From the NCBI GenBank assembly GCA_965249615.1, contig CBDFMI010000006.1, positions 444,132-508,131 of the forward strand: a stretch of DNA of 64,000 nt, read 5' to 3'. This DNA comes from a bacterium (GTDB lineage Bacteria > UBA8248 > JACPRG01 > G963555815). The translations under genes and the position numbers were made by a program. The notes under the pieces are model-generated. The model ran no database searches and had not been told where the DNA came from. It saw only the letters and a list, made by a program, of their open reading frames with translations. Within the stretch, counting starts at the first letter, position 1. Every line of letters begins with the position of its first letter. This document shows positions 5,667 through 21,850 of the stretch, one piece after another.

Positions 5667-5769
5667 GGCGCCACTTTTTTACTAACAGATGTTCTCATCC
5701 AATCAGCCCATTCGCATCTGCTGTTCTCTTAATATATCGGTCTTCTATCGTCTGTGGGGAGGAGAAAAG

Positions 5770-7673: not shown

Positions 7674-9794
7674 GTGGACGGTTTACAGTCAGATACTGGG
7701 AGCCGCTGGTCTCTTCTGTGGCGGGATTGTTTGGGGTGGCTATCGGTCTCAGCAGGTCTGGGTGTATTTGAATCGATCCTTCTGGCCTTCCAAAGACCTG
7801 AGATCAATCCCTTCGCAGTGATCGATCTTTTGGATCTCCTGAGCTCCGCCATCGTTTTAAATTCCTTGATGATTCTCCCAGTCTCAGCGGGCCATTTCCT
7901 CCTGTGTTTTCGCCTTTTGGGAGATCGCGACCGTCGGGCGCAGGGTCGAAACACGTTTTTATTCCACCTCGTTGTGTTCCTCGCGTTGGTGTTCACCATT
8001 TTTATTGGCCGAAGACTCATCTTCACGATCCCTGCAGCCATCGTGATCGCCACGGCCCTTTGGTTCGGACTGAAATATACACCCAGGCGGCTGGCCCGTA
8101 TGTTCGGGCTGGGTGTCACCGTTTTCCTGCTGGCCTTTCTTTCCTACGAATTTGCACGGCCATTTTATCCCCTAAAAAATCTCCGCGAGGTCCGGAACGA
8201 AGACAGCGCACTTCCAAATGTGCTCCTGGTGCTTGTGGATACGTTGCGGGCGGATCGGCTCTCCACATACGGCTATTCCAGGGAGACGTCCCCGTTCATT
8301 TCAAAGCTCGCGGGAGAGGGGGCGAAATTTACGAATTTCTATGCGAACGCGAGTTGGACTCCGCCGGCGACGGCAACGATTTTGACCGGCGTATTTCCCT
8401 CAATCCATGGAATAAACGGAACGTCGTTCCAAAAGAAGGCTCCGGTTAAGACGCTTTGTGAGGTTCTGCGCGGACACGGATACAACACGGCTGCGTTTGT
8501 CGCGAACCCATGGATCGGTGAGCGCAGTGGATTACTCGAAGGATGCGACTATCACAGCCCGATGTGGAACCCCTTTAGGCGAAACCACCAGAGACGTGAT
8601 GTCCCAGATCCATCCGCACCCTCTTTCCTGATCCTCGCCAGCGAGCCGATGCTGGAAAACATTTTCGTCTGGAGAAAGTTTGTTTTTTTGCCACGCATTT
8701 TCGTTTGGAATAGATTTGTTTCTTTGTCCGATAGGGTTGTAACCAGCCTTTTCATAATTGACAGGAAGAAGAGCCACCTCCTCCGCGGGGCATTTCGCCT
8801 AATTCAGGAGGTTGATGGAGATGGGAATGATAACCGAGAGGAGATAGAAAATCGCATTCCTCGTGCGGATGAGTTTACACATGGAGTCTTGAACTACGTC
8901 GATTATGTGGCATCGGTGGAAAACCATGATGGCCAAAGGACGAAATTCTTTATCTATCTGCACTATGTAGAACCGCATAGCCCGTATCAGTCACCTGGGC
9001 GCTATGGTCGCCTGTTTGATCCCCACTATCCGGATGAGCGTGTGACTGAGTATCCGGATCCGTCTGAAAATGGGACCACGCCGGAATTGCCGGATGCGCA
9101 GCTGCACAACCTTCAAGCACAATACGACGGAGAGACCCGTTACTTTGATGACAACTTCCAGTTCCTTTTCTCGAATCTAGAGGAAAGGGGGTTCGTGGAT
9201 AACACGTTGATTGTCTTTGTTTCTGACCATGGAGAGGAATTCTACGAGCATCGGGGATTTGGGCATGGGGGAACAGTCTTTGAGGAAGTGCTCAGAGTGC
9301 CTCCCATTTTATGGTACCCCGGCAGCTTGCCCGGCGGACTTGAGGTGGAGGAGCCGGGATCCCAGGTGGATCTAATGCCAACGATTATGGAGGTCCTCGG
9401 TCTTCCGGGGCCCGGGGATTTCCAGGGAAGAAGCTTGTTGCCGCTCATATATGGGGAGGAGAGCGGGGCGGCCATCTATGGAGAAAGCTCACGCGAGCCC
9501 CCTGGCCGCGAGCTTAGTTCTCATCGGTTTTTAGTTCATGGCCGATATAAATTTATCAACCAGGAAAAACCTGAGACAGAGCATGAAAAATTTCTTTTTG
9601 ACCTTCAGTTGGATCCGAACGAGCAAGAAAACATCTACGGCTCTGAAAAAAAGATAGCGGAAGAAATGGAGTTGCTACTGGAAAAATTCGTCACATTGGT
9701 CGAGAATGACCCCCGGTACTCTGAAAACCCAGAGGCCATCGGAGTTGACCCGGAACTGGAGGAGCGTCTGAAGGCTCTCGGATACGTTGAATGA
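7674..9794 (+). CDS. Membrane-anchored sulfatase-family protein (LTA-synthase/phosphoglycerol-transferase-like: N-terminal 5-TM domain plus sulfatase domain)
   Basis: GTG start; N-terminal ~170 aa hydrophobic; sulfatase motif LVLVDTLRADRLSTYGYSRETSPF...SWTPPATATILTG; C-terminus ends ...EERLKALGYVE. Confidence 0.8.
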   Translation: MDGLQSDTGSRWSLLWRDCLGWLSVSAGLGVFESILLAFQRPEINPFAVIDLLDLLSSAIVLNSLMILPVSAGHFLLCFRLLGDRDRRAQGRNTFLFHLVVFLALVFTIFIGRRLIFTIPAAIVIATALWFGLKYTPRRLARMFGLGVTVFLLAFLSYEFARPFYPLKNLREVRNEDSALPNVLLVLVDTLRADRLSTYGYSRETSPFISKLAGEGAKFTNFYANASWTPPATATILTGVFPSIHGINGTSFQKKAPVKTLCEVLRGHGYNTAAFVANPWIGERSGLLEGCDYHSPMWNPFRRNHQRRDVPDPSAPSFLILASEPMLENIFVWRKFVFLPRIFVWNRFVSLSDRVVTSLFIIDRKKSHLLRGAFRLIQEVDGDGNDNREEIENRIPRADEFTHGVLNYVDYVASVENHDGQRTKFFIYLHYVEPHSPYQSPGRYGRLFDPHYPDERVTEYPDPSENGTTPELPDAQLHNLQAQYDGETRYFDDNFQFLFSNLEERGFVDNTLIVFVSDHGEEFYEHRGFGHGGTVFEEVLRVPPILWYPGSLPGGLEVEEPGSQVDLMPTIMEVLGLPGPGDFQGRSLLPLIYGEESGAAIYGESSREPPGRELSSHRFLVHGRYKFINQEKPETEHEKFLFDLQLDPNEQENIYGSEKKIAEEMELLLEKFVTLVENDPRYSENPEAIGVDPELEERLKALGYVE

Positions 9795-9831
9795 AGGTTA
9801 AAGGGCTCGACTCGGACTTGGTGCACACAGC

Positions 9832-12039
9832 ATGAACCGCTGGTCCTTGCTTCGGCGAGATTTTTTGGGATGGCTGGCGGTTTCGGCAGGTCTGGGCGTA
9901 TTTGAATCGGTCTTGCTGGCCTTCCAAAGACCTAAGATCAACCCCTTCGCGGCCATCGATCTGGTCGCTCTTTCGATTTCTGCCGTCCTTTTCAACTCCC
10001 TGATGGTTCTACCCGTTTCACTCGGTCATTTTTTCTTGTATTGGCGGTTTTCTGGAGGCCACGACCATCAGGCGCAGGGCCGAAACGTCTTTTTATTTCA
10101 CCTCGTCGTGTTCCTCGCGGTTGCGTTCATCATTTTTATTGGCCGAAGGCTCATCCTTACGGTTCCTGCAACTATTCTGATGTCCGCGGGCCTTTGGTTC
10201 GGCCTTAGATATCTTTCGACAAGGATTGTTCGGGCATTTTCAGTAGGTGCCGGTATTTTCCTCTTGGCACTTTTTTCGTATGAGTCCCTCCGCTTGCCGC
10301 TCTATATCACAGACCCCGATTATGAACTATGGAAGTCGGAAGTTACGTTATGGGAGGAGGAAGACCCGCGATGTGAGACGCACCTGCGCTTCTCTACTCT
10401 CAACGGCGACCTGGGGTCCCTCGATTCCAGGAACTGTTCCAATTACTACCTGGAGAAGTTCAGGCAGGTAGAAGCGGAGCACCAATCACTGCCGAACGTT
10501 ATTCTGGTTCTTGTCGATACGCTTCGCCCCGATCACCTGTCCACATACGGCTATCATCGAGAGACATCGCCTTTTATTTCGAAGCTGGCGGCGGAGGGGC
10601 TAAAATTTACCAATTTCTATGCGAACGGTGCGTGGACCCCGCCGACGACTTCAACGCTTCTAACCGGCGTTTTTCCCGCAATCCATGGGATATATGAGCC
10701 TGGCGGGCAAAAGAGGGAGACAGTCAAAGTCATTTCTGAGACTCTCCGTGACTACGGCTATAACACAGCCGCCTTTATCGCGAATCCACTGATTACGAAA
10801 AGCACTGGGTTGCTGGACGGATATGATTATTTCTACCGAAAACCCAGGCCGCCGGTGTCGCGGCCGTCGTTGAGGCTCGCGAGCTTCCCCAGTCCGGAGA
10901 ACCTCCTCATATGGGTGAAGTTTCTGTCTCTGTCAGATAAGGTGGTCCAGGCGTTTCGGGGTTTTGATGGGAAGAAAAACGATCTTTTAGTTCAGATATT
11001 TCCCTTCAGCCGTGAATTAGAGCCAGAAAGACAGGAAAGGATACGGGAGGAATTCCGTTTCCCCCCCGCGGAAGTCGACATGGATAAAGAACTCGACTTC
11101 CCCCGGGCGAATGAAATGGCGAACGCGGTGCTGAATTACGTGGATTACGCCTTGGCAGGTCCTGACTTCGACGTTGTGCAAACGAAATTCTTCCTCTTTC
11201 TCCACGACATGGGTCCCCACGATCCTTATAAGTTGCCCACGCCATATGACGTCCTCTTCGACCCTGGGCGCCAGGATAGGCCGGAGGCCGAAGGGGCAGT
11301 CCGGTTTTTGGATGAGTCGCCGCCTGCGTCAGTTCGGGAGAGATTGGCCCATGATTTGCCGCTGTATGACGGAGCAATCCGTTTCTTCGATGATAATTTT
11401 CAGGTGCTCTTTTCGGAACTCAAGGAACGGGGGCTTTTGGACAATACCCTAGTGATCTTGCTGGCAGATCATGGGGAAGAATTCTATGAGCACGGTGAAA
11501 TTGGACATGGGGAGAAGGTCTTTGAGGAAATTGTCAGGATCCCCCTTGTCTTGTGGTATCCAGGGGAATTGCCCTAAGGGGTCGAGGTGAAGGAGTTCGG
11601 GTCGCAGGTGGATATAATACCCACGATCGTGGATGTTCTGGATCTGCCAGTACCAGAGGGGTTGCAGGGAAAGAGCCTCTTGCCCGCGATATCCGGGAGG
11701 GGGCTAGAGAGGGTTGTGTACGGAGAAAACTTGCGTGGTTCGCAGGATTTATCGTCGGGAGATATGTTGCGATTTTTGATCCATGGCCGATATAAACTCA
11801 TCACCATGGGGACACCTAAGACAGTGCGGGAAAAATTGCTCTTTGACCTCCAGTCGGACCCGCATGAGAAAAACAACATCTGCGGGTCTGAGAAAAAGAT
11901 AGCGGAAGAAATGGAATCGCTGCTAGAGGATTTCATCGCATTGGTGAAGAAGGACCCTAGGTATTCTGAAGACCTAGAGGCCGTTGAAGTGGACCCGGAA
12001 CTGCAGAAGCGTCTAAAGGCTCTCGGATACATTGAATGA
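9832..12039 (+). pseudogene. Tandem paralog of the preceding sulfatase-family gene, interrupted by an in-frame TAA at 11575-11577 (N-terminal fragment 9832..11577; C-terminal fragment from GTG 11587..12039)
   Basis: Same frame on both sides of the stop (ELP*GVEVKEFGSQVDIIPTIV aligns to SLPGGLEVEEPGSQVDLMPTIM of paralog 1); N-terminal DNA ~85% identical to paralog 1; the C-terminal fragment ends ...QKRLKALGYIE. Confidence 0.6.
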
Positions 12040-12129
12040 GGGTTAAAAAGTTCGCGTCGATCCTGGTGAAAAAGCAGGCTCACCTTTGGCCCGCGATCGG
12101 GTTTTTAGTTTGAGAGGACGTGGGTAAGA

Positions 12130-13806
12130 ATGTCCATCTCCAAGGTCGCCCTCCTGGGTCTTGACGGTGCCACCTTCTACCTCCTTCGCCCCTGGATGGA
12201 GGATGGAACGCTCCCCAATCTTGCGAACCTCCAAAAACGGGGAGCCTCTGGGGTCCTTGCCTCCACCGTTCCACCGGTGACACCGACGGCCTGGTCCACG
12301 TGCATCACGGGGGTAAACCCGGGAAAGCACGGGATATTCGATTTTCGAGATTCTCCCCTCCGTCATCCCGACCGCCCCCTTCTGAGTCTATCCTCTATCC
12401 GCGCCCCCCGGCTCTGGCAGCTCCTGAATGGGGTCGGGAAAAAGACCATCATCCTCAATGTCCCCATGACTTATCCACCTGAGGCGGTGGACGGGTGCAT
12501 GGTCTCGGGGATGATGACACCGGGGCCGGAGGCGAACTACACTTATCCCCTGGAACTCAAGGCGGAGATCCGTCGGGAGATCGGAGAGTACCTGCCGGAT
12601 ATCGACCTGCCCAAGTACGACGCCGAGCGTTATGAGGATGCCCTGGCATACCTGGACTTGATACGGAAAAGTTTTTCCCAGCGGGAAAAACTTTTCTTCC
12701 ACCTCATGGAGAACCGGCCCTGGGATTTCTTCATGGGGGTTTTCATCTTGCCCGACCGGCTCCAACACGTCTTCTGGAAATATCTGGACCCTGAGGCCGG
12801 GCTCTACGGGACCGAGATCGCCCAGCGGCTCCGAGGCTCGGTCATTGACTGCTATCGTCTGATGGATGATTTTATCGGGCGCCTCGTGGAGCGGCTTTCC
12901 TCTGATACCCTCCTTCTTATCATGTCGGACCACGGTTTTGGACCCACCCAGGCCTGGATCAACGTGAGCACCTGGCTGGAGCAGCAGGGTCTCCTCAAGA
13001 TGAGGGGCCAGATGGCCCTGCAGCGACGCCTCTTGTACCATGCTGTGGGGCTGAACGAGGTGGGCTGGCTAAAACGCCTTATCCCGCAGTCCCTTCAGGC
13101 CTTCGCCCGAAAACGGGTGCGTCAGACCAAGTCCGCCTTTCGGACCGACGTTCAGGTCACCCTGGACTGGGATCGGACCCAGGCCTTTTTTCCCAGCATT
13201 CCGGCTCAAGGGATCTACATCAATGTGGAGCGGGACGGAGCGGGGATCGTCCCCCCGGGGGAGGCCTACGAGGCCCTGCGCGCTCGGCTTCGCGATTCGT
13301 TGCTGGCCCTGAAGGACCCGGCGACAGGGGAACGGATCGTGGACGCGGTGCAGTATCGAGAAGAGGTCTACCACGGGCCCGAAACCCCCTACGCCCCGGA
13401 CCTGTTCTTCGTCGCCCGAAATTACAGCTACCTGGGCCGGCCGATGTTTGGGGGCCGAGAGGTCATCCGGTCGCGCGTCCAGGTGCCAAACGGCTTTCAC
13501 CGCCCCGACGGGATCTTCATGGCTCATGGACCTCACGTGGCCTCGGGCCGGGCGGTCACTGGCTCCCACATCGCTGACATCACCCCCACCATCCTCTATA
13601 GTCTCGGCCTCCCCGTCCCAAAAGAGATGGACGGAAAGCCTTTGTCGGAGATCTTTGAGGCGGACTTTCGGCCCGAGAAGAAGGGCCAAGAGGTGAGCGC
13701 TACTGAAAGTCCACAGCCGCCTGAGAGGACTCCCTCTGAGGCTTATCGTCCCGAGGAGGCCTCCGCCATCGAGAAACGCCTTCGGGCCCTGGGGTATGAG
13801 GACTGA
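12130..13806 (+). CDS. Alkaline-phosphatase-superfamily enzyme (type I phosphodiesterase/nucleotide pyrophosphatase family), paralog 1
   Basis: N-terminus VALLGLDGATFYLLRPWMEDGTLPNLANL...VPPVTPTAWSTCITGVNPGKHGIFDF; ~558 aa; ends ...IEKRLRALGYED. Confidence 0.8.
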   Translation: MSISKVALLGLDGATFYLLRPWMEDGTLPNLANLQKRGASGVLASTVPPVTPTAWSTCITGVNPGKHGIFDFRDSPLRHPDRPLLSLSSIRAPRLWQLLNGVGKKTIILNVPMTYPPEAVDGCMVSGMMTPGPEANYTYPLELKAEIRREIGEYLPDIDLPKYDAERYEDALAYLDLIRKSFSQREKLFFHLMENRPWDFFMGVFILPDRLQHVFWKYLDPEAGLYGTEIAQRLRGSVIDCYRLMDDFIGRLVERLSSDTLLLIMSDHGFGPTQAWINVSTWLEQQGLLKMRGQMALQRRLLYHAVGLNEVGWLKRLIPQSLQAFARKRVRQTKSAFRTDVQVTLDWDRTQAFFPSIPAQGIYINVERDGAGIVPPGEAYEALRARLRDSLLALKDPATGERIVDAVQYREEVYHGPETPYAPDLFFVARNYSYLGRPMFGGREVIRSRVQVPNGFHRPDGIFMAHGPHVASGRAVTGSHIADITPTILYSLGLPVPKEMDGKPLSEIFEADFRPEKKGQEVSATESPQPPERTPSEAYRPEEASAIEKRLRALGYED

Positions 13807-14878: not shown

Positions 14879-16551
14879 GACGCCTCCTCATCATCGGCGT
14901 CGACGCCGGCACCCTGGACCTCATCGAGCCGTGGGCCCGAGCGGGTGATCTCCCCCATCTGGCCCGTCTCCTCAGGGAGGGGGCCTATGGGCGAGTCCAG
15001 TCGACCCTCCCCCCCTCCACCTATCCCGCCTGGACCTCCTTCATGACCGGTCAGAACCCCGGGCGGCACGGTCTCGTGGACTTCACCTTGAGGGAGGGAG
15101 GGCGCTATGCCGTCAGATTCGCCAGCTCCCGAGACCGGCAAAGTGCTAGTTTGTGGGGGATCCTCAGTGAGGCCGGCCGAAGAGTCGCCGTCCTCGGCAT
15201 GCCCGCCACATACCCCCCTGAAGCCGTCAACGGCTGTATGGTCAGCGGATTCGACTCCCCCCTAGCATGGCGTCTCAACGAGAGCTTTTTTCATCCTCGA
15301 GGGCTCCACCGGGAGGTCATACAGGAGGCGGGACTCTTCCCGCTCTCGGCCTGCCGGGAGGATCGGATCGGAAAGGGCTGGCACGAGCGGGCCTATCGGG
15401 AGATCCTGAAATCACTGGAGCAAGAAACTCGCGTGGCGGAGTACCTCCTGGGCCGGGAAGCGTGGGATTGCTTCTGCGTCGTCTTCGGCCAGACAGATAC
15501 GGTGTGCCATCATTTCTGGAAATTCTTCGACCCATCCTCTCCCCGATATGACTCAGAGGGGGCGAGGCGCTTTGGAGACGCCATCCGTCAAGTCTATCGG
15601 CGTGTGGATTCAGCCATCGGTTCCCTGCTGCAAAAGGCGCCCGATGACGTCACGGTCCTCATCGTCTCGGACCACGGAGCGGGGGGGGCAGGAAACCAGA
15701 TTATTCATTTAAACGCTTGGCTGGCCGGGGAGGGCCATCTGACCTTTCGAAAGGGGGGGGTGGGCTACCGTGCCCTTTCAGCCCTGAAGACGCTGGGCCT
15801 CGGCTATCTCCCGAGGAGGGTTCAAGAACAGGTCTTTCGTGCGGGCGGGGGCAGGCTGGCAAATGGGCTAGAATCCCGCTTGCGTTTCGGCCAGATCGAA
15901 TGGGCGAAGACCCGGGTCTATTCCGAGGAGCTGGGTTATTTCCCCTCTCTTTGGATCAACCTTCGGGGGAGGGAGCCTCAGGGGACGGTGGAGCCCGGCA
16001 GGGAATATGAGGATCTGAGGGACGAGATCATCAGCCGCTTAGAGGTTCTCAGACACCCCGTCACGGGGAGGCGCCTCGTTGAGCGGGCCGTTCGGCGAGA
16101 GGAGGTTTATTGGGGCCCCTTTGTGGACCGGGTTCCTGACATTCTCCTGGAGCTCGCCCTCGACGAGGGCTATAGCTACTCCTGCCTTCGAAGTCCAGCC
16201 CGCTCCCAGGGCCCCTTCGTTCGCTCTCTCCAGAGAGCGGAGGGGGCCAGGGGCCAGGGGATGAACGGCTCACACCGACCAGAGGGGTTTTTCGTTCTCT
16301 CGGGTGAGGGGGTGCGCCCGGGGAAGTGCCGGTTCACCCCCCATCTCATGGACTTTGCCCCGACGCTTCTCGCCCTTTTGGGGATCACCCCTTCGGTGGG
16401 GATGGACGGTCGGGTCTTGGAAGAAGTCCTGAGCGTCCCTGAGCCTCATCCCGTCCCCGTCGCCGTGGCAGGGGAAGAGACGCCTTCGGCGGCCCAGGGG
16501 TGGGAAGGCACGGCCTTCCGGCGGCTTCGGGACCTTGGATACCTGGAATGA
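14875..16551 (+). CDS. Alkaline-phosphatase-superfamily enzyme (type I phosphodiesterase family), paralog 2
   Basis: TTG start overlapping upstream stop (TTGA); IIGVDAGTLDLIEPW...LPPSTYPAWTSFMTGQNPGRHGLVDF; ends ...FRRLRDLGYLE. Confidence 0.8.
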   Translation: MRRLLIIGVDAGTLDLIEPWARAGDLPHLARLLREGAYGRVQSTLPPSTYPAWTSFMTGQNPGRHGLVDFTLREGGRYAVRFASSRDRQSASLWGILSEAGRRVAVLGMPATYPPEAVNGCMVSGFDSPLAWRLNESFFHPRGLHREVIQEAGLFPLSACREDRIGKGWHERAYREILKSLEQETRVAEYLLGREAWDCFCVVFGQTDTVCHHFWKFFDPSSPRYDSEGARRFGDAIRQVYRRVDSAIGSLLQKAPDDVTVLIVSDHGAGGAGNQIIHLNAWLAGEGHLTFRKGGVGYRALSALKTLGLGYLPRRVQEQVFRAGGGRLANGLESRLRFGQIEWAKTRVYSEELGYFPSLWINLRGREPQGTVEPGREYEDLRDEIISRLEVLRHPVTGRRLVERAVRREEVYWGPFVDRVPDILLELALDEGYSYSCLRSPARSQGPFVRSLQRAEGARGQGMNGSHRPEGFFVLSGEGVRPGKCRFTPHLMDFAPTLLALLGITPSVGMDGRVLEEVLSVPEPHPVPVAVAGEETPSAAQGWEGTAFRRLRDLGYLE

Positions 16552-17768
16552 GTGGAGAGAAAGGATCTCGTCGGAAGGTGGCCATGGTGGCCCCCTGTCC
16601 CTTCCCAAGCGTTCAGGGCTCCCAGATCCTGATCCAGGATCTGGCCGGGGGCCTCGAGAGGAGGGGACACGAGGTCCACGTGGTCACTTACCCCTTCGGG
16701 GGCTCCCGTCCGACCGCTTCCTTGCGGATCCACCGGGCTGCCTGTCCCCTTCGTTATGCCGTGGACCACCCGGGCCCTCATCTCTATAAACCTTTTCTGG
16801 ACCTCTTCGTCTTGAGAGAGCTCCTGCGGGTCATCCGCGGGGAGGGGATTGAGCTCCTCCACGCCCACAGCTATGAGGGGTTGCTCATCTCCCTGCTGGC
16901 CGGAAGGTGGACGGGCATTCCCGTCCTCTATCACAGCCACACCCTCCTCGAGGAGGAGCTCCCCACCTATTTTCGGGCCTCGTGGAAGCGCGCCCTGGCG
17001 CATTGGGTGGGCCGACTGCTGGACCGACAGCTTCCGCGTCGGTCAGACCATTGCATTGCCCTTTGTCAGAGAACCCTTGGGGCCTTTCGGGCCTTGGGGG
17101 TGGCGGCGGATCGCTCTTCCTGCATTCGTCCTCTGATCTTTTCCCCCGCCGATAAAACTCCTTCCAGGGTGGATGTAGAGCGCCATCCCTTCATCCTCTA
17201 TACGGGAAACCTCCACCCGTATCAGGATCTCAATCTCCTGATGGAGGGGTTCGCCGAGGTGGCCTCGAGGCTCTCAGAGGTCCGCCTGGTTATCGCCACC
17301 CATTCTGACCCTTCCCATTACGCCGCCCTGGCAAGGGCCCTGGGGCTGTCGGAGCGGGTCTCCTTTCGCGTGAAACCTCCCTTGGATGAAGAGTGGGGTT
17401 TGATGCGGAGGGCCGACCTCCTCGTCTGTCCGCGCCTTCGGTGCTCCGGCTACCCCATCAAGCTTTTGAACTACCTGGCGGCTGGAAGGCCCATCCTCGT
17501 CAGTGAGGGCTCGGCCGAGGGGATTCGCCATGGCGAGAACGGCTACGTTGTCTCTCGGCCTGAACCGAAAACCCTGGCGGAGGGGGCTATTCAAATCCTT
17601 CAGTCCCCCGCCTTGGCAAAACGGTTGGGCGAAGGGGCGGCCCGGACCTACCGGGAGGAGGTGGCGGAAGAGCGCTCCTTGTCGGCCATCGAGGCCATCT
17701 ACACGCAGTGTCTGGGGGAGGAGGGGAACGCGGCCCTCCTCGCCCACCCGAGGGAAATGGCCTCATGA
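16548..17768 (+). CDS. Glycosyltransferase family 4 (GT-B fold)
   Basis: ATG overlaps the upstream stop (ATGA); VAMVAPCPFPSVQGSQILIQDLAGGLERRGHEVHVV N-terminal GT4 motif; C-terminal GTLHPYQDL...E...E-type block. Confidence 0.8.
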   Translation: MSGEKGSRRKVAMVAPCPFPSVQGSQILIQDLAGGLERRGHEVHVVTYPFGGSRPTASLRIHRAACPLRYAVDHPGPHLYKPFLDLFVLRELLRVIRGEGIELLHAHSYEGLLISLLAGRWTGIPVLYHSHTLLEEELPTYFRASWKRALAHWVGRLLDRQLPRRSDHCIALCQRTLGAFRALGVAADRSSCIRPLIFSPADKTPSRVDVERHPFILYTGNLHPYQDLNLLMEGFAEVASRLSEVRLVIATHSDPSHYAALARALGLSERVSFRVKPPLDEEWGLMRRADLLVCPRLRCSGYPIKLLNYLAAGRPILVSEGSAEGIRHGENGYVVSRPEPKTLAEGAIQILQSPALAKRLGEGAARTYREEVAEERSLSAIEAIYTQCLGEEGNAALLAHPREMAS

Positions 17769-19168
17769 CCAAGGTCTTGATCCTGGGCCTCGATTGCGCA
17801 GACCCTCGCCTGGTCTTTGACCGCTGGCGACAAGAACTTCCGAACCTCAGACAGCTCATGGAGGCCGGCGTCTGGGGCCCTCTTCAGAGCACCATCCCCC
17901 CCATCACGGTCCCAGCCTGGGCCTGCATGATGACGGGGCGGGACCCTGGAGAGCTAGGGATCTATGGGTTCCGAAACCGGACCTCCTATCAGTACGGGGC
18001 CCTGGGGATCACCAGCTCTCTCTCGGTCCAAGAGGAGACCCTGTGGGACATCCTGGGCCGCACCGGCCGGGAGGTGGTGGTCGTCGGGGTCCCTCCTTCA
18101 TATCCTGTGAAGCCCGTCCGGGGCAGCCTCATCTCCTGCTTTCTCACCCCGAACGCCGAGGTCCCTTTCACGCATCCCCCTGAGCTCAAGGAGGAGGTTC
18201 AGCGTCTTGCCGGCGGGTACCTGTTTGACGTGGAGGGATTCCGGACCGACGACAAGCCCCGGCTCCTCCAACAGATCCACGAGATGACAGAAAAACGCTT
18301 TAGGGTCCTGAAACACCTACTCACCCGAAAGCCGTGGGACTTTTTTATGTCGATGGAGATCGGGGTGGACCGCATGCATCACGGCTTTTGGAAATTTCAC
18401 GATGAGGGCCACATCAAGCACCCCCCGCAAAACCCCTATCAGCACGTCATTCTGGACTATTACCGCTATGTGGACAAGGAGATCGGTGAGCTGGTGGAGT
18501 CCGTCGACGAGGACACGGTCATCATCGTCCTCTCTGATCACGGGGTGAAGAGGATGGAGGGGGGGCTGTGCGTCAACGAATGGCTCATGAAGCAGAAATA
18601 TCTGAGCCTCTCCGCCTACCCCAAGGAGCTCACCTCCCTCAGCAAGCTCGATGTGAACTGGGACCGGACCATGGTCTGGGGAGAAGGGGGGTACTATGGC
18701 CGGATCTATCTCAACGTAAAGGGCCGGGAACCCCAGGGGGTCATCGCCCCAAATGACGTGGAGAAGATCCGGGCAGAGCTGAAACAGGGCATGGAAGAGC
18801 TTTCCGACGAATCAGGGCGCCCCCTCGGGACCCGCGTATTCTATCCCGAGGAGGTCTATCAGGAGGTCCGGAGGATCCCGCCCGATCTCATCGTCTATTT
18901 TGGAGACCTGGACTGGCGCTCTGTCGGGACCGTGGGCCATGGCTCGATCCACACCCGAGAGAATGACACGGGCCCTGACGACGCCAACCACGACACCCAC
19001 GGGATATTCATCATGGCGAAGAAGGCGGACCTCAAAGGGGGCGGGACCGGTCTGGGAACCCGCCTCGACGGTCTCAGCCTCTACGACGTGACCCCCACCG
19101 TCCTGGACCTCCTTGGCCTTCCCATCCCACCCTCGATGCACGGGCGAGTGATTTCTCCTAGAGCCTGA
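17765..19168 (+). CDS. Alkaline-phosphatase-superfamily enzyme (type I phosphodiesterase family), paralog 3
   Basis: ATGA overlap with the glycosyltransferase; MTKVLILGLDCADPRLVFDRW...IPPITVPAWACMMTGRDPGELGIYGF; lacks the LGY tail. Confidence 0.8.
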   Translation: MTKVLILGLDCADPRLVFDRWRQELPNLRQLMEAGVWGPLQSTIPPITVPAWACMMTGRDPGELGIYGFRNRTSYQYGALGITSSLSVQEETLWDILGRTGREVVVVGVPPSYPVKPVRGSLISCFLTPNAEVPFTHPPELKEEVQRLAGGYLFDVEGFRTDDKPRLLQQIHEMTEKRFRVLKHLLTRKPWDFFMSMEIGVDRMHHGFWKFHDEGHIKHPPQNPYQHVILDYYRYVDKEIGELVESVDEDTVIIVLSDHGVKRMEGGLCVNEWLMKQKYLSLSAYPKELTSLSKLDVNWDRTMVWGEGGYYGRIYLNVKGREPQGVIAPNDVEKIRAELKQGMEELSDESGRPLGTRVFYPEEVYQEVRRIPPDLIVYFGDLDWRSVGTVGHGSIHTRENDTGPDDANHDTHGIFIMAKKADLKGGGTGLGTRLDGLSLYDVTPTVLDLLGLPIPPSMHGRVISPRA

Positions 19169-19208
19169 TCGGTCCGCCTGTCTGGCTGAAAGAACCGCCA
19201 GAAAAAGC

Positions 19209-19236
19209 TTGACGGGGAAAAATGGGTGTATATACT
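19209..19236 (+). promoter_or_regulatory. Strong sigma70-like promoter element (TTGACG-N16-TATACT), copy 1 of a 30-bp element repeated at 35897
   Basis: cTTGACGgggaaaaatgggtgtaTATACTc; 27/30 nt identical to 35896-35925. Confidence 0.45.
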
Positions 19237-19326
19237 CGTTGTATCGGAAGAGACTGAAGGAGACGGAATTTCAGTCCGAGAGCGGGGCCACGCAATGGAG
19301 CAGAAATGGCCCAGGAGGGGGTGAAC

Positions 19327-20034
19327 ATGGGCGAGCTTTCTTCCACGGCGAAGCGTGCTGTCTCAGCCTACGGCGGGGCCGATCGCTGGCGAAACGCACG
19401 GGCCATCGAGGCTGTGGTCTCGGCCAACGGCTTGGGCTTCCGCTTGAAGTGGCGGCGTCCTGCCCCAAATGCGGACGTCCGGGTGGAGATAGCGGAACCG
19501 GTCGTCAGGATGGATCTCAAAGATAGCGAGGGGCACATCGGCGTGATGGACCGGGGAGACGTGAGGATTGAGACGTCTTCTGGTAAAGTCGTGGCCTCAC
19601 GGCCGAATCCAGAACACCTGTTTCCCTACGGGCGAAGGGCTTTTTGGTGGGATCGGCTCGACCAGATCTACTTCTCAGGGTACGCCTTGTGGAACTACAT
19701 GACGCTTCCGGCCCTGTTGCTCAGGGACGACATCCAATGGGAGGAGCTCAGAGAGGGGAGCCTTCAGGCGCGTTTTCCCAAACATCTTCCAACACATTGC
19801 GAGGTGCAGCAGTTTCATTTCGAGCCGGCCACAGGGCTCCTGCGCCAGCTCGACTACACGGCGGAGGCCTTCGGAAACTGGGCCAAGGCCGCGAACGTGG
19901 TTTTGGAGCACGGCGAATCGGAGGGGATTCCTTATCCTTCACTGCGTCGGGTTACCCCGCGCCGAGGGGACGGCAGCCCGCGCAAGGGGCCGCTCCTCGT
20001 CGGGATCGAATTCCATCGATTCCGGCTCGTCTAG
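19327..20034 (+). CDS. Hypothetical protein
   Basis: GGAGG RBS 7 nt upstream of ATG 19327 (the 19306 ATG lacks an RBS); 235 aa, no recognisable family. Confidence 0.5.
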   Translation: MGELSSTAKRAVSAYGGADRWRNARAIEAVVSANGLGFRLKWRRPAPNADVRVEIAEPVVRMDLKDSEGHIGVMDRGDVRIETSSGKVVASRPNPEHLFPYGRRAFWWDRLDQIYFSGYALWNYMTLPALLLRDDIQWEELREGSLQARFPKHLPTHCEVQQFHFEPATGLLRQLDYTAEAFGNWAKAANVVLEHGESEGIPYPSLRRVTPRRGDGSPRKGPLLVGIEFHRFRLV

Positions 20035-20042
20035 TCCCCAAT

Positions 20043-20675
20043 CTAGTCGATATATCCCAAGCCCTTCAGTTTGGCCTGGATGGTCTGCTTCTCTTCCTCG
20101 GAATAGACGTAATCGGCGGGCTCGATGTAACCGAATTCTTCCAGCCGAGAGAGAATATGCGCGACAGATTCCTTAACCGACTCTTTGTCCGTCTCGACGG
20201 TTATCTCGGGGTTGAGGGGCTCTTCATAGGGGTCTGAGACCCCCGTAAAATTCTTAATCTCACCCTTAAAAGCTTTCGCGTACATCCCTTTCACGTCCCG
20301 TTCTGCGCAGACCTCAACAGGGCATTTGACGTAGAGCTCCACGAAGCGCCCCACCTCGGCCCTTACGGCGTCTCGGATGGCCCGGTAGGGGGCGATGACC
20401 GCCGCCATGTTGGGAACCCCGTTTCGGGTCAAGAGGTGACAGAGGTATCCCAGGCGAATGATGTGCTTATCGCGGTCCTCTTTGGAGAAGCCGAGGTCGG
20501 CGCTGAGATTGCGGCGCACTTCGTCGCCGTCGAAGACCTCGACGTTCGGAAAACCGCGCTCGTGAAGTTTCTCTCCGAGAAGAACGGCAATCGTGCTTTT
20601 CCCTGAGCAGGGAAGGCCTGTGAACCAGACCGTGAACCCTCTGGGTTTATCTTTGATCACTTTCTCTCTCCTCAA
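20043..20675 (-). CDS. cysC: Adenylylsulfate (APS) kinase with a ~25-aa C-terminal extension
   Basis: P-loop GLPCSGKSTIA, DGDxxR motif FDGDEVRRNL; the extension ends ...QAKLKGLGYID; overlaps sat by ATGA. Confidence 0.9.
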   Translation of the reverse strand: MRREKVIKDKPRGFTVWFTGLPCSGKSTIAVLLGEKLHERGFPNVEVFDGDEVRRNLSADLGFSKEDRDKHIIRLGYLCHLLTRNGVPNMAAVIAPYRAIRDAVRAEVGRFVELYVKCPVEVCAERDVKGMYAKAFKGEIKNFTGVSDPYEEPLNPEITVETDKESVKESVAHILSRLEEFGYIEPADYVYSEEEKQTIQAKLKGLGYID

Positions 20676-21850
20676 GAGCCGCCGTCAGAACCCTGTCCTG
20701 CCCGCTCGGCGTAAGCCTGGTGCAAGACCCGGGCGACTTCAGGCCGCATCACCTCCGGGGGTGGAAGCTCCCCGCGGTCTAAAATTTCCCTCACACGAGT
20801 TCCGCTCAGGAAGACGCGCTCTTTCTCCCCGTGGGGGCAGGTCTTGGCCGTTATCATGGCCTCACACCCACGGCAGTAGAAGGCGTGGTCGAAGAAGAGA
20901 GGGGTGATCCCGATCTCCGAGGCCTCGAACTCGTGGAAGATATGGTGGGCGTCATAGGAGCCGTAGTAAGACCCGACGCCGGCGTGGTCCCGGCCCACGA
21001 TGAAATGGGTACAGCCGTAGTTCTTTCGCACGATAGCGTGGAAGATGGCCTCCTTCGGCCCGGCGTAGCGCATGGCCGCCGGAAACACGGAGAGGACCGT
21101 CCGGTTCTTGGGAAAATAGCTCTCCAGGATCACCCTGTAGGAGGCCATCCGGAGGTCCGCCGCCAGGTCGCCCTCCTTGGTGGCCCCGACCAGGGGATGA
21201 AGTAGGAGGCCGTCCACACATTCTAGGGCGCACTTCTGAATGTACTCGTGGGCGCGATGAATGGGGTTTCGGGTCTGGAAGGCCACGACCGTCTTCCACC
21301 CCTTGAGCTGAAAGAGAAGGCGGGTCTCCTTGGGTTCCAGATGGAAGTTGGACCACTCGGTGGCGGCCCCTCTTCGAAGGAGTTTAATAGGCCCCCCGAT
21401 GAGGACAGGGCCTCGCTCGAAGACCTGGCGAACCCCGGGGTGGTCCGAATCTTTTGTCCCGAAGACCTGCTCCACCTCCCTCTCCTTGTCCGGCTTCCAC
21501 TGAGAGGTGACCCGAAGAAGCCCGGTCGTTTCCTTCCCGACCGTGAGGGTAATCTCGTCACCTATGGAAAGGGTCTGGGCCGTCTTCTCATCCACGCCGA
21601 GGACGATGGGAAGCGTCCAGGGAAGGCCCAAGGCGAGGCGCTGGTCTTCCACCACAGCCTGGTAGTCCTCCTCCTCCATGAATCCCCTTAGGGGGCTGTA
21701 GGCCCCCGTCGCGATGAGTTCGAGATCGGAATGCTCCTGGGCCGACAGGGCGATTTTCGGCAGCCCTTGGGCTTTTTTGTCCAAGGCGGGCCGATCCTCC
21801 TCCCGGACCATCCGGTCGACGAGGACCCCGCCGTGCGGTTTGATAGGCAC
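20672..21850 (-). CDS. sat: Sulfate adenylyltransferase (ATP sulfurylase)
   Basis: 392 aa; QTRNPIHRAHE and GRDHAGVG motifs; start preceded by GAGGAGG RBS. Confidence 0.9.
   Translation of the reverse strand: MPIKPHGGVLVDRMVREEDRPALDKKAQGLPKIALSAQEHSDLELIATGAYSPLRGFMEEEDYQAVVEDQRLALGLPWTLPIVLGVDEKTAQTLSIGDEITLTVGKETTGLLRVTSQWKPDKEREVEQVFGTKDSDHPGVRQVFERGPVLIGGPIKLLRRGAATEWSNFHLEPKETRLLFQLKGWKTVVAFQTRNPIHRAHEYIQKCALECVDGLLLHPLVGATKEGDLAADLRMASYRVILESYFPKNRTVLSVFPAAMRYAGPKEAIFHAIVRKNYGCTHFIVGRDHAGVGSYYGSYDAHHIFHEFEASEIGITPLFFDHAFYCRGCEAMITAKTCPHGEKERVFLSGTRVREILDRGELPPPEVMRPEVARVLHQAYAERAGQGSDGGS

Follow-up and report, generated by a model that had tools for sequence, protein, structure and literature searches.

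Alkaline-phosphatase-fold enzymes genetically linked to sulfate activation in a bacterial gene cluster

In PAPS-dependent sulfation cassettes of bacterial surface-glycan loci, such as the Cobetia marina capsular polysaccharide cluster (cysNC, cysD, cysQ, sulfate permease, sulfotransferase) or NodPQ/NodH, sulfate activation genes are placed beside genes for glycan or lipid assembly. Sulfate activation enzymes are also found in other combinations: ATP sulfurylase-pyrophosphatase and APS kinase-ATP sulfurylase fusions are found in eukaryotes (PMC2275785), and Methanothermococcus thermolithotrophicus has a locus encoding ATPS, APSK, a PAPS reductase and a DHH-type PAP phosphatase (PMC10322725). 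Alkaline-phosphatase (AP)-fold membrane enzymes, in turn, cooperate with a cytoplasmic glycosyltransferase and a flippase in the lipoteichoic-acid and phosphoethanolamine-transferase systems (YpfP-LtaA-LtaS; EptA/MCR-1). Here, we describe a bacterial gene cluster that joins an operon of AP-fold enzymes, inferred to build a glycolipid, to the two enzymes that make activated sulfate, but in which no canonical sulfotransferase was found. As the same partnership recurs across many bacterial phyla and in archaea, marked by a shared 20-residue protein tail, it may represent an undescribed way of adding sulfate to the cell surface; we found no published description of it.

Gene content of the cluster

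The cluster lies in a 64,000-nucleotide stretch of contig CBDFMI010000006.1 (assembly GCA_965249615.1), referred to here as the window, to which all coordinates refer. The initial annotation had noted two membrane sulfatase-like enzymes, a translationally coupled operon containing three type I phosphodiesterase-family enzymes, and a convergent sat-cysC pair whose CysC carries the shared tail. This observation proved to be real: all nine genes, their Pfam families, the four start/stop overlaps and the C-terminal tail were confirmed. The features are as follows.

7674-9794 (+): Sulf1, a membrane-anchored sulfatase-fold enzyme with about five N-terminal TM segments, followed by a catalytic domain (PF00884, 1.4e-43) with Thr at the nucleophile position (W-T-P-P-A-T, DNA 8355-8372); tail at 9732-9791.
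9832-12039 (+): Sulf2, a second membrane gene with a TM region plus PF00884, interrupted by an in-frame TAA at 11575-11577; probably a pseudogene, or a sequencing error; tail at 11977-12036.
12088-12103 (+): a terminator-like hairpin between Sulf2 and AP1.
12130-13806 (+): AP1, a cytoplasmic NPP-like AP-superfamily enzyme (PF01663, 5e-35) with a Thr nucleophile (PPVTPTAW, DNA 12271-12294), a long acidic/Pro linker, no TM segment, and the tail YRPEEASAIEKRLRALGYED at 13744-13803.
13796-14878 (+): Flip, a flippase-like polytopic membrane protein (PF03706, TIGR00374).
14875-16551 (+): AP2, a second cytoplasmic NPP-like paralogue (PF01663, 5.6e-43; PPSTYPAW, DNA 15010-15033) with a TTG start; tail at 16489-16548.
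16548-17768 (+): a GT4 family glycosyltransferase (GT-B, retaining), whose nearest solved relatives are, weakly, BshA and MshA; a GTG at 16500 is an alternative start.
17765-19168 (+): AP3, a highly conserved NPP-like enzyme (PF01663; PPITVPAW, DNA 17897-17920) with neither tail nor TM segment, the member genetically tied to sat and cysC.
19306-20034 (+): orf242, a 242-codon spacer ORF of unknown function, probably not part of the system.
20043-20675 (-): CysC, APS kinase (TIGR00455, 211.7 bits against a cut-off of 138.7), with a C-terminal extension of about 30 residues that ends in the tail YSEEEKQTIQAKLKGLGYID (DNA 20046-20105).
20672-21850 (-): Sat, a homo-oligomeric-type ATP sulfurylase (PUA_2 plus ATP-sulfurylase domains; NF003166, 552.8 bits against a cut-off of 387).

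All overlaps were read directly from the sequence: ATG 13796 lies 11 nt inside the preceding gene, although an in-frame ATG at 13808 is an alternative start; TTGA is found at 14875-14878, and ATGA at both 16548-16551 and 17765-17768. The sat stop and cysC start are likewise joined by a TTGA overlap on the minus strand. The TTG start of AP2 is consistent with the alignment of its N-terminus with those of AP1 and AP3 from residue 1, and with the same gene length and overlap in the closest relative, a locus with 94% identity (L081). While the tight coupling of 12130-19168 thus holds, the fixed stoichiometry that had been deduced from it is an over-reading of start/stop overlaps.

Several corrections to the initial annotation were nevertheless required. 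The frame of the second sulfatase-like gene, which had been taken to end at 11577, continues beyond the TAA to 12039 and carries the tail; this gene is 51% identical to Sulf1 and is absent from L081. The operon does not abut cysC, as an 875-bp interval holds orf242, which has no Pfam or NCBIfam hit; the interval 19192-20026 has no counterpart in L081, which has a Trypsin_2 gene there, and in a relative with about 65% identity (L095) AP3 and cysC converge 30 nt apart. A consensus scan for promoter-like and terminator-like sites gave no more matches than expected from shuffled sequence, and the hairpin at 12088-12103 is only weak evidence that the sulfatase-like genes form a separate transcription unit. 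Sulf1 also differs in composition, having a GC3 of 0.58 against 0.73-0.79 for neighboring genes.

The description of the membrane enzymes as LTA-synthase-like sulfatases applies to their architecture only. They are closest in sequence to S1 sulfatases, but both have Thr where sulfatases need formylglycine: the C/S-x-P-x-R motif is lacking and T-P-P-A-T is found instead. The best solved relative of Sulf1 is the choline sulfatase 7oz8 (2.5e-30), and in that alignment T-P-P-A-T replaces S-T-P-A-R. NCBIfam scores of 27-36 bits are far below the LtaS and EptA family cut-offs of 500-970. By contrast, the three PF01663 proteins are paralogues (about 35% identity) that all keep the Asp/Thr/Asp-His/Asp-His/His catalytic set, the loss of which had been named beforehand as grounds for rejecting the proposal.

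Two conserved modules and a shared tail

Comparative genomics showed that the locus is two modules rather than one unit. Module A, comprising AP1, the flippase-like protein, the TM sulfatase-like enzyme, AP2 and GT4, is a widespread syntenic block, which usually occurs without sat, cysC or AP3 nearby (AP3 in 4 of 48 loci). Flip is fused in frame to the TM sulfatase-like enzyme in three loci (L109, L110 and L129). Module B comprises Sat, CysC and AP3. Synteny of the cluster is conserved in L081 and in L095, which has the same architecture, and recurs in rearranged form in Glassbacteria (L052) and in L129; in all, modules A and B are found together, in different arrangements, in the window, L081, L095, L129, L052 and a further locus, L005. 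The convergent AP3-cysC-sat arrangement is kept in L081, L083 and L095.

The link between AP3 and sat-cysC is not an accident of position. AP3 orthologues, which are 45-69% identical across phyla and in archaea, lie within 3 kb of sat or cysC in 41 of 80 species genomes, and of both in 23, mostly on the same strand and across many phyla, although about half of the AP3 loci have neither gene nearby. In 13 Chloroflexota loci, AP3 is fused in frame to Sat, each fusion being followed by cysC where the contig extends far enough (P0045 is a truncated example). Operons containing AP3 repeatedly hold a PAP phosphatase of one of two unrelated folds: PHP, for which the best NCBIfam match is 3',5'-nucleoside bisphosphate phosphatase, and DHH, of which one archaeal protein matches the M. 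thermolithotrophicus PAP phosphatase 8A8K, characterized in PMC10322725, at 4.8e-83. This argues that PAP is a product of the operon's own chemistry. In Thermosipho ferrireducens, the operon reads RHH-tail, CysC, PHP, RHH-tail, DASS anion symporter, a 142-aa protein, Sat, AP3 and a MOP/MATE-type flippase, where it ends, and it has no other candidate PAPS user.

No canonical sulfotransferase was identified, either by Pfam among the cluster genes or, elsewhere, by a scan for the sulfotransferase P-loop motif in the window and in 911 neighboring ORFs of the 80 loci; outside the cluster genes this search relied on a motif rather than an HMM.

The shared tail was confirmed. Sulf1, Sulf2, AP1, AP2 and CysC all end in [RK]L[KR]xLGY[IVLE][ED], and in all six frames of the window only these five ORFs, all inside the cluster, end this way. 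More generally, the motif [YF][ST]xEExxx[IV]xxRLxxLGY[LI][ED] marks CysC, AP1, AP2 and some AP3 orthologues, while the TM enzymes carry a shorter variant. Of the 120 best AP1 homologues, 117 carry the tail, and among the 814 ORFs of the module A loci it occurs in 114, of which 106 are AP or sulfatase-type proteins. Among loci with a complete AP3 and CysC, the strict tail is on CysC in 22, on AP3 in 1, on neither in 7 and on both in none. A profile of the tail alone recovered proteins of about 70 residues, and all five that were looked up lie in operons beside cysC and an AP3 orthologue 44-54% identical to that of the window, with sat in four; the hosts are Thermotogota, Elusimicrobiota, Methanofastidiosia, another archaeon and an unassigned metagenome contig. 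At least one tail-bearing ORF, either fused to an enzyme or as a free protein of about 70 residues, is present in 50 of the 80 AP3 loci.

A tentative model for envelope sulfation and its alternatives

The proposal that the cluster synthesizes or remodels a phosphorylated and/or sulfated glycolipid or lipid head group is partly supported by these data: the product is plausible, but has not been shown. In our preferred reading, to which we assign a probability of only about 0.45, the locus is a cell-envelope glycoconjugate modification system made of two conserved modules that share a docking tail. Module A would build a glycosylated, probably lipid-linked, intermediate in the cytoplasm, which would then be moved across the inner membrane and processed there. 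In module B, Sat and CysC make PAPS, as follows from their family membership, and AP3, an NPP-like two-metal enzyme with a Thr nucleophile, would consume it, transferring the sulfuryl group to an acceptor, probably through a covalent sulfo-Thr intermediate, and releasing PAP; AP3 would thus take the place of a canonical sulfotransferase. The tail, which has the pattern of a capped amphipathic helix, would tether CysC, AP1, AP2 and the small RHH-like proteins to a common partner, most likely AP3, so that activated sulfate could be handed on within a complex. While gene content, catalytic residues, synteny, gene fusions, the distribution of the tail and co-occurrence with PAP phosphatases are established by our analysis, the chemistry, the acceptor, the direction of transport and the binding partner of the tail are inferences.

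The reading is supported by the conserved linkage and fusions of AP3, the accompanying PAP phosphatases, the content of the T. ferrireducens operon, the lack of a sulfotransferase motif, the tail-only search and distribution, the recurrence of both modules together, and the intact catalytic sets of the three paralogues, the structural model of AP3 being confident and NPP-like. However, it remains without any biochemical result, no AP-superfamily sulfotransferase is known, and, judging from the promiscuity of AP and NPP enzymes, Thr-nucleophile AP-superfamily enzymes are poor sulfuryl-transfer catalysts. The very high conservation of AP3 suits a fixed small-molecule substrate better than a variable glycan acceptor, and about half of the AP3 loci have no sat or cysC nearby. 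As module A usually occurs without sat, cysC or AP3 nearby, AP1 and AP2 need not use PAPS. Moreover, the catalytic domain of Sulf1 is predicted to be periplasmic (five TM segments), in which case its tail variant cannot meet a cytoplasmic partner.

The main alternative, which we consider doubtful, is that AP3 is a dedicated hydrolase of inorganic pyrophosphate (or of a pyrophosphate bond) that pulls the unfavorable ATP sulfurylase reaction. Module B would then be only a PAPS supply and clean-up kit of Sat, a PPase, CysC and a PAP phosphatase, the sulfotransferase proper would be encoded elsewhere, and AP1, AP2 and the TM enzyme would be phosphodiesterases or phospho-group transferases acting on a glycolipid head group. 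The Sat-AP3 fusions are equally well explained in this way, as they mirror the ATPS-pyrophosphatase fusions of stramenopiles and haptophytes, which are explained by equilibrium pulling (PMC2275785). AP3 is also about as conserved as Sat and CysC themselves (52-59% identity to the window's proteins across the loci), as would fit a universal small substrate; its fold belongs to the nucleotide pyrophosphatase clade; and each by-product, PPi and PAP, would have its own hydrolase. However, a PPase role does not explain AP3 in loci that lack sat and cysC but have TM sulfatase-like enzymes, further AP paralogues and RHH-tail proteins (L037, L049, L059 and L064), nor why AP3 paralogues multiply in the same clusters, why no canonical sulfotransferase motif appears in any of the 80 neighborhoods, or why the Thermosipho operon pairs the kit with an exporter but no PAPS user. 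In addition, NPP-type enzymes are not known as efficient PPi hydrolases.

Two further readings appear less likely. The tail itself may be the substrate or carrier, with AP3 modifying the invariant Tyr of the LGY motif, for example by O-sulfation from PAPS, on CysC, the AP paralogues and the small RHH-like proteins, either as a feedback or regulatory mark or as a sulfuryl-carrier arm used by the AP paralogues as an aryl-sulfate donor. The occurrence of the tail both fused to enzymes and as a free protein is the pattern seen for carrier domains, minimal archaeal operons contain only the RHH-tail protein, CysC, Sat or a PAP phosphatase, and AP3, and two invariant substrates would account for the high conservation of AP3. 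The first aromatic residue of the tail sits in an acidic context, as at tyrosine-sulfation sites, and in a tail-bearing AP3 orthologue the tail helix is modelled at a pLDDT of about 82. However, this reading is without precedent; the conserved S/T, the Glu run and the Gly are, in our interpretation, fully explained by helix N-capping and C-capping, which suggests a docking helix rather than a modification site, the first aromatic position is Phe in 22-39% of tails, the number of residues after the Tyr varies from one to three, and the TM enzymes probably carry their variant in the periplasm. Least likely, in our view, is that sat-cysC is an ordinary assimilatory pair that happens to lie next to an unrelated glycolipid operon, the tail being a generic structural helix without functional meaning. 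The usual absence of sat and cysC near module A and the variable ORF between AP3 and cysC would be consistent with this, and the LxxLGY pattern weakly resembles the first helix of PG_binding domains and the native C-terminus of APS kinases. Nevertheless, the conserved linkage and fusion of AP3, the retained convergent arrangement, the five-of-five result of the tail-only search, the position of all five tails of the window inside the cluster and the predominance of AP or sulfatase-type proteins among the tail-bearing ORFs of the module A loci argue against it, and no cysH or sulfite reductase appeared among the 25 of 66 families listed for the rest of the window.

Comparison with described systems

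As in the C. marina cluster, a PAP phosphatase and a sulfate or anion transporter are present in related loci; however, the ATP sulfurylase is of the Sat type rather than CysDN, the PAP phosphatase is PHP or DHH rather than CysQ, the invariant extra enzyme is an NPP-like AP-superfamily protein in the absence of a canonical sulfotransferase, and the shared tail and RHH-tail proteins have no counterpart in those cassettes. Compared with the nucleotide pyrophosphatase/phosphodiesterases (Xac NPP, ENPP1/3/4/6/7) and the phosphonoacetate hydrolase PhnA, sequence identity is only 13-19%, and no solved structure is found by sequence search. The proteins described here are cytoplasmic and lack a signal peptide, have an extra inserted domain and many additional invariant Arg, Lys and His residues, and are found in a context of sulfate activation, not nucleotide scavenging.

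The logic of the lipoteichoic-acid and phosphoethanolamine-transferase systems is matched, with a cytoplasmic glycosyltransferase, a flippase and a membrane enzyme that has about five TM segments and an AP-fold domain bearing a Thr nucleophile, and the in-frame Flip-sulfatase-like fusions show that the two membrane parts work together. However, the catalytic domain is closer to S1 sulfatases than to LtaS or EptA, the flippase is a PF03706 protein rather than an MFS protein, and two soluble NPP-like paralogues and the tail are additional. Flip belongs to the same Pfam family as MprF and HpnL and, like MprF, can be fused to a lipid-modifying catalytic domain, although the fused or neighboring domain is a sulfatase-fold enzyme, not an aminoacyl-phosphatidylglycerol synthase.

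As in the eukaryotic fusions (PMC2275785), Sat is fused to a hydrolase-fold partner and works with an APS kinase, and one locus (L085) also has a CysC-Sat fusion; here, though, the partner is an AP-superfamily enzyme of unknown activity, not a family I inorganic pyrophosphatase. Finally, as in M. thermolithotrophicus (PMC10322725), archaeal loci hold an APS kinase and a close homologue of the DHH PAP phosphatase, but the place of the PAPS reductase is taken by AP3 and an RHH-tail protein, with no reductase or sulfite reductase in the ±7 kb examined.

Gene content and family assignment

The initial annotation described two transmembrane (TM) sulfatase-like genes, a translationally coupled operon and a convergent sat-cysC pair. 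We determined that this observation holds, although several details required correction. The ORFs and their families are as it stated:

7674-9794 (+), Sulf1, hydrophobic N-terminal segments followed by a PF00884 domain
9832 onward (+), Sulf2, hydrophobic N-terminal segments followed by a PF00884 domain, interrupted by a stop codon
12130-13806 (+), AP1, a PF01663 protein
13796-14878 (+), Flip, a PF03706/TIGR00374 membrane protein
14875-16551 (+), AP2, a PF01663 protein
16548-17768 (+), a GT4 glycosyltransferase
17765-19168 (+), AP3, a PF01663 protein
20043-20675 (-), CysC, APS kinase
20672-21850 (-), Sat, ATP sulfurylase

The four start/stop overlaps that it listed are in the sequence, and sat and cysC are also joined by a TTGA overlap. 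CysC matched the equivalog model TIGR00455 at 211.7 bits (cut-off 138.7), while Sat, which has PUA_2 and ATP-sulfurylase domains, matched NF003166 at 552.8 bits (cut-off 387) and TIGR00339 at 425 bits (cut-off 323). Flip, which has multiple hydrophobic segments, scored 116.6 bits against PF03706 (cut-off 33.4) and 48.5 bits against TIGR00374 (cut-off 43.2), and the GT4 protein has an N-terminal Glyco_transf_4 domain (79.1 bits) and a C-terminal Glycos_transf_1 domain (72.8 bits), both above cut-off.

The surrounding genes are housekeeping genes (class V FBPase, GcvH, a tandem ThyX, Nuo subunits, MreB, DnaN, Tol and AsmA), which indicates a diderm bacterium, and the closest named relatives of the cluster proteins are Nitrospinota and Tectomicrobia MAGs. 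The ThyX of 472 residues (22046-23464, minus strand) has two Thy1 domain matches and is apparently a tandem-duplicated flavin-dependent thymidylate synthase; the same gene follows sat in L081, the closest relative (94% identity), and lies a few genes beyond sat in L083, a Nitrospinota MAG. A class V fructose-1,6-bisphosphatase/aldolase gene (5689-6882) lies next to module A (described below) in the window, and a 70%-identical one lies next to module A in an unrelated metagenome contig (L107:20754-21656). Exact-sequence look-ups of three window proteins returned nothing, and L081 was reached only through a homologue. Rfam found no RNA family in the window, and the counts of promoter-like and terminator-like sites were no higher than in shuffled sequence.

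Sulf1 and Sulf2 exceed the Pfam gathering score for PF00884 (149.8 and 147.5 bits against a cut-off of 25). However, at the position of the formylglycine motif of S1 sulfatases (C/S-x-P-x-R), Sulf1 has T-P-P-A-T, where choline sulfatase 7oz8 has S-T-P-A-R in the alignment, and Sulf2 has T-P-P-T-T. As they lack this motif, they cannot be formylglycine sulfatases, and we read them from sequence as Thr-nucleophile enzymes on a sulfatase scaffold. Their predicted architecture resembles that of LtaS, EptA and OpgB, membrane phospho-group transferases with about five N-terminal TM helices and an extracytoplasmic AP-fold domain: hydropathy and the positive-inside rule fit five TM segments with N-in and C-out, although the segment at residues 47-80 could be two helices, and Thr is at the nucleophile position. 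They nevertheless score only 27-36 bits against the models for LtaS (NF053595), EptA (NF007160) and CptA (NF012179), for which the cut-offs are 561-970. Sulf2 has an in-frame TAA at 11575-11577, where the aligned residue in Sulf1 is Gly; the same frame continues for 153 more codons, to 12039, and ends with the same tail as Sulf1, so that this could be a pseudogene, a sequencing error or a read-through site. Sulf2 shares its N- and C-terminal ends with Sulf1 but has a divergent middle, and it is missing from L081. Both genes have a GC content of 0.52 and GC3 of 0.58-0.60, against GC3 of 0.73-0.79 for the rest of the cluster. The sulfatase-like genes therefore look like later additions, and Sulf2 like a decaying duplicate.

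AP3 and cysC are separated by 875 bp (19169-20042). This interval holds a 242-codon ORF with no family match, preceded by a TTGACG-16-TATACT promoter-like site at 19209-19236; L081 has a Trypsin_2 gene there instead, and the ORF is absent in L095, a relative with the architecture of the window at about 65% identity.

AP1, AP2 and AP3 have neither TM segments nor signal peptides, are about 35% identical to one another, and score 122, 148 and 174 bits, respectively, against PF01663 (cut-off 23). They share the Asp, Thr, Asp-His, Asp-His and His residues of the two-metal site and nucleophile of NPP/type I phosphodiesterases; in AP3, D10, T48, D202, H206, D258, H259 and H409 are invariant in 73 homologues. 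AP3 has thousands of homologues, and the best 120 are 54-69% identical across Nitrospinota, Acidobacteriota, Chloroflexota, NC10, Binatia and Proteobacteria, with about 70 invariant columns. No solved structure was detectable by sequence beyond marginal matches, while an AlphaFold model built from 73 sequences has a pLDDT of 95. AP3 hits only PF01663 and PF00884, and has no match to the Pyrophosphatase or DHH-DHHA2 folds of family I/II inorganic pyrophosphatases; any pyrophosphatase activity would thus be analogous rather than homologous.

Linkage of AP3 to sulfate activation genes and predicted PAP phosphatases

A scan of one genome per species found at least 597 stretches encoding AP3 relatives, of which we analyzed the 80 best with 10-kb flanks. 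Either sat or cysC lies within 3 kb of AP3 in 41 of these 80 loci, and both do in 23; among the 46 loci with full flanks, the numbers are 21 and 12, nearly always on the same strand. The usual order is sat-AP3-cysC. In 13 Chloroflexota loci (L001, L002, L004, L006, L008, L009, L012, L015, L016, L034, L044, L045 and L074), Sat and AP3 form a single in-frame ORF of 861-970 residues (one is cut by a contig end), followed by cysC where the contig extends far enough. The convergent arrangement of the window, with AP3 facing cysC-sat, is kept in L081, in L083, which lacks module A (the AP1, Flip, TM sulfatase-like, AP2 and GT4 block) entirely, and in L095, where AP3 and cysC stop 30 nt apart. In contrast, P0006 (L082) and L048 show AP3 alone, with no informative context.

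In Thermodesulfobacteriota loci, sat-AP3 is followed by a PHP-domain protein whose best NCBIfam match is the 3',5'-nucleoside bisphosphate phosphatase model, though below the cut-off of that model, and whose solved relatives include 2yb1 and 7ug9. In an archaeal locus and in an Elusimicrobiota locus, the same place is taken by a DHH protein; the archaeal one matches the characterized PAP phosphatase of M. thermolithotrophicus (8A8K; PMC10322725) at 4.8e-83. The occurrence of two unrelated PAP phosphatase folds in the same operon position argues that PAP is produced by the operon's own chemistry, and AP3 itself is therefore unlikely to be the PAP phosphatase.

A fourth group of PF01663-type proteins (about 430-450 residues, 28-32% identical to the AP paralogues of the window) follows cysC or the PHP gene in sat-AP3 operons (L055:12016-13308, L019:3891-5246, L074:12163-13524, L042:12487-13833 and L065:12118-13467). 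Vestigial APS-kinase-like ORFs, without or with a degenerate P-loop, keep the tail described below and lie next to AP3 (L018:11530-11820, L025:11412-11708 and L022:9279-9896), between sat-AP3 and the PHP gene in L018 and L025; they recall the regulatory APS-kinase-like domain of fungal ATP sulfurylases.

Elsewhere, AP3 precedes nonulosonic-acid or other polysaccharide genes (PseB-like, DegT, CTP_transf_3 and NeuB). In Acidobacteriota, Latescibacterota and Actinomycetota (L010, L014, L017, L021, L043 and L063, about 10-20 kb in each), it lies directly upstream of or between PseB-like genes at the head of a nonulosonic-acid-type sugar cluster (PseB-like, DegT, cytidylyltransferase, NeuB), with no sat or cysC nearby. 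It also heads clusters of TM sulfatase-like enzymes, larger AP paralogues and a tail-bearing ORF with a weak ribbon-helix-helix-like (RHH) N-terminus, again with no sat or cysC nearby (L037, L049, L059 and L064).

The C-terminal tail and module A

Five proteins of the window, Sulf1, Sulf2, AP1, AP2 and CysC, end in ...RL+xLGY[IVL][ED], and no other ORF in any frame of the 64 kb does. In the 80 AP3 loci, 46 of 1026 ORFs end this way, of which 44 are CysC, AP3, AP1/2-like or TM sulfatase-like proteins; when small ORFs are included, 50 of the 80 loci hold at least one. The full motif is [YF]-[ST]-x-[ED]-E-x-x-x-[IV]-x-x-R-L-x-x-L-G-Y-[LIM]-[ED], and the positions not used in the search pattern are 91-100% conserved. 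We read it as a capped amphipathic helix, which would have a hydrophobic staple and an S/T N-cap, a Gly C-cap, and aromatic and aliphatic anchors. In AP1, it sits at the end of a Pro/Glu-rich linker, as is typical of a docking peptide, and 117 of the 120 best AP1 homologues carry it. The tails of the TM enzymes are a shorter variant that lacks the acidic half; L110:1-7708 and L069:2154-7891 hold tandem arrays of three to five sulfatase-like paralogues, and each paralogue ends in the variant ...L[KR]ALGY[IV]x.

Among loci with a complete AP3 and CysC, the strict tail is on CysC in 22, on AP3 in 1, on neither in 7 and on both in none, while in another 11 loci AP3 carries the tail and no complete cysC is nearby. 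CysC proteins without the extension still end in a similar native helix (...LxxxGY/F...), and the tail therefore looks like a duplicated copy of that helix on a linker. Other identities were considered for the tail. A proteasome-type HbYX motif was rejected because one to three residues follow the Tyr. An encapsulin or microcompartment targeting peptide was marked down because no shell gene appeared among the neighbor families that we annotated, and a membrane-targeting helix because the tail is strongly acidic. Its resemblance to the ESCRT-III MIM1 motif and to the first helix of PG_binding domains we treat as convergent helix patterns.

As an independent test, we searched with a profile of the tail alone, the motif being doubled to 42 residues to reach the minimum query length. 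This biased the ranking towards short proteins with two copies of the motif, which turned out to be informative, as the search returned proteins of about 70 residues, each with a weak RHH-like N-terminus and the tail at the C-terminus. Five of these were looked up, and all five lie in operons with cysC and an AP3 orthologue that is 44-54% identical to the AP3 of the window, against 25-30% to AP1 and AP2. The hosts are Thermosipho ferrireducens of the Thermotogota, an unassigned metagenome contig with a CysC-Sat fusion, Methanofastidiosia, another archaeon and Elusimicrobiota (L084/L088, L085, L089, L091 and L093; L084/L088 are from T. ferrireducens CP071446.1, at 8330-16075 in L088). The CysC-Sat fusion, of 562 residues, is found in L085 and L086. 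Four of the five loci have sat, and four have a predicted PAP phosphatase of the PHP or DHH type. The small proteins often occur two per operon and may be regulators, adaptors or carriers. The Thermosipho operon reads RHH-tail, CysC, PHP, RHH-tail, DASS anion symporter, a 142-aa protein, Sat, AP3, MOP/MATE-type flippase, and then stops, because the next genes are on the other strand. By its gene content, it is a self-contained unit for import, activation, use, clean-up and export, in which AP3 is the only candidate PAPS user.

Seeding with the AP1 family in metagenome contigs gave 80 loci. Among the 48 of these that are at least 8 kb, the order AP1, Flip, TM sulfatase-like, AP2, GT4 recurs; Flip is present in 19, a Sulf gene in 18, GT4 in 16 and at least two AP1/2 paralogues in 36, whereas an AP3 orthologue is present in only 4, and sat or cysC in 2. 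In three loci (L109:7221-10196, L110:11701-14997 and L129:11508-14774), Flip and the sulfatase-like enzyme form one in-frame ORF of 991-1098 residues, and the two membrane components therefore act together. The tail is on 114 of 814 ORFs in the module A loci, 106 of which are AP1, AP2 or Sulf proteins. Module A and module B (Sat, CysC and AP3) occur together, in different arrangements, in the window, L081, L095, L052 (Glassbacteria), L005 (Methylomirabilota) and L129, where everything is on one strand in the order AP, Sat, x, AP3, CysC, AP1, Flip-Sulf fusion, AP2.

Interpretation and comparison with known systems

The initial annotation proposed that the locus serves the synthesis or remodelling of a phosphorylated and/or sulfated glycolipid or lipid head group, an interpretation that our results support only in part. 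Its statement that no canonical sulfotransferase is present holds within the scope searched: no Sulfotransfer_1/2/3 or Stf0 domain was found by Pfam in any cluster protein, and no 5'-phosphosulfate-binding P-loop (PKxGTT or RSGS/T type) was found in the window or in 911 neighboring ORFs, although the scan outside the cluster used a motif only. Sat and CysC, judged by their families, make PAPS, and the predicted PAP phosphatases in the same operons imply a PAPS-consuming step. As AP3 is the invariant extra enzyme, the most economical reading is that AP3, and perhaps its paralogues, takes the sulfuryl group from PAPS (or APS) and passes it to an acceptor, which would be an envelope glycoconjugate made by GT4 and handled by Flip and the TM enzyme. 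A Thr nucleophile forms a covalent intermediate that is not resolved by the formylglycine elimination mechanism and would therefore, as we infer from the chemistry of the superfamily, favor transfer over hydrolysis. In this view, the tail would tether CysC, the paralogues and the RHH-like proteins to a hub; AP3 is the only protein common to all tail contexts, and a tail-bearing AP3 orthologue is modelled with the tail helix at a pLDDT of about 82, after a low-confidence linker. We hold this reading tentatively, at a probability of about 0.45. Gene content, catalytic residues, synteny, gene fusions, the distribution of the tail and the co-occurrence with PAP phosphatases come directly from the analysis, whereas the chemistry, including any nucleotide phosphodiesterase or pyrophosphatase activity of the AP proteins, the acceptor and the binding partner of the tail are inferred.

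The main alternative, which we consider less likely, is that AP3 is a pyrophosphatase that pulls the Sat equilibrium, as the ATP sulfurylase-pyrophosphatase fusions of stramenopiles and haptophytes are thought to do (PMC2275785). Although this would explain the Sat-AP3 fusion and the high conservation of AP3, it does not explain the AP3 clusters that lack sat, the multiplication of AP3 paralogues in the same clusters, or the absence of any sulfotransferase within the scope given here. It is unlikely, though possible, that the tail is itself a substrate or carrier. In a further reading, which taken as a whole is also unlikely, the COG3379-like alkaline-phosphatase-fold enzymes (AP3 and its paralogues) would, as in the favored reading, transfer sulfuryl groups, being a new class of sulfotransferase working through a covalent sulfo-Thr intermediate, and the tail would in addition be more than a tether: its invariant Tyr would be sulfated by AP3 and would act as a mobile sulfuryl carrier or a regulatory mark, either free, on the RHH-like proteins of about 70 residues, or fused to CysC and the AP paralogues, in a system shared by Bacteria and Archaea. 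Chance adjacency is very unlikely, and some room remains for an explanation not considered here.

Source databases name these proteins only as 'alkaline phosphatase family protein' or 'predicted AlkP superfamily phosphohydrolase/phosphomutase', and NCBIfam has no specific model for them. Full-text literature searches found no alkaline-phosphatase-superfamily sulfotransferase and no description of this gene combination or of the tail, and searches on COG3379 and on Thermosipho sulfate activation returned nothing relevant.

All well-characterized biological sulfation uses one sulfotransferase fold, with PAPS as donor, the exception being the periplasmic aryl-sulfate enzymes. Here, in contrast, sulfate activation genes are tied by operon structure, gene fusion and a shared peptide tail to a predicted alkaline-phosphatase-fold enzyme, in loci (the 80 best plus those seeded with the tail) that span more than 15 bacterial phyla and methanogen-related archaea. 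If AP3 uses PAPS, it is a second and mechanistically different route to sulfated envelope molecules, which would also explain how many uncultured lineages could sulfate glycans or lipids; if AP3 is instead a pyrophosphatase, this is the prokaryotic counterpart of the eukaryotic ATP sulfurylase-pyrophosphatase fusions. In either case, the tail is a compact and searchable marker that links enzymes, membrane proteins and putative regulators into one system and gives a direct handle for pull-down experiments, and T. ferrireducens, a cultured organism, carries a self-contained nine-gene version suited to experiments. While sulfate-activation cassettes beside glycan or lipid genes are known (PMC11766843), the enzyme set and the tail-based organization of the present system are not, and it has a real chance of proving to be a new enzyme class.
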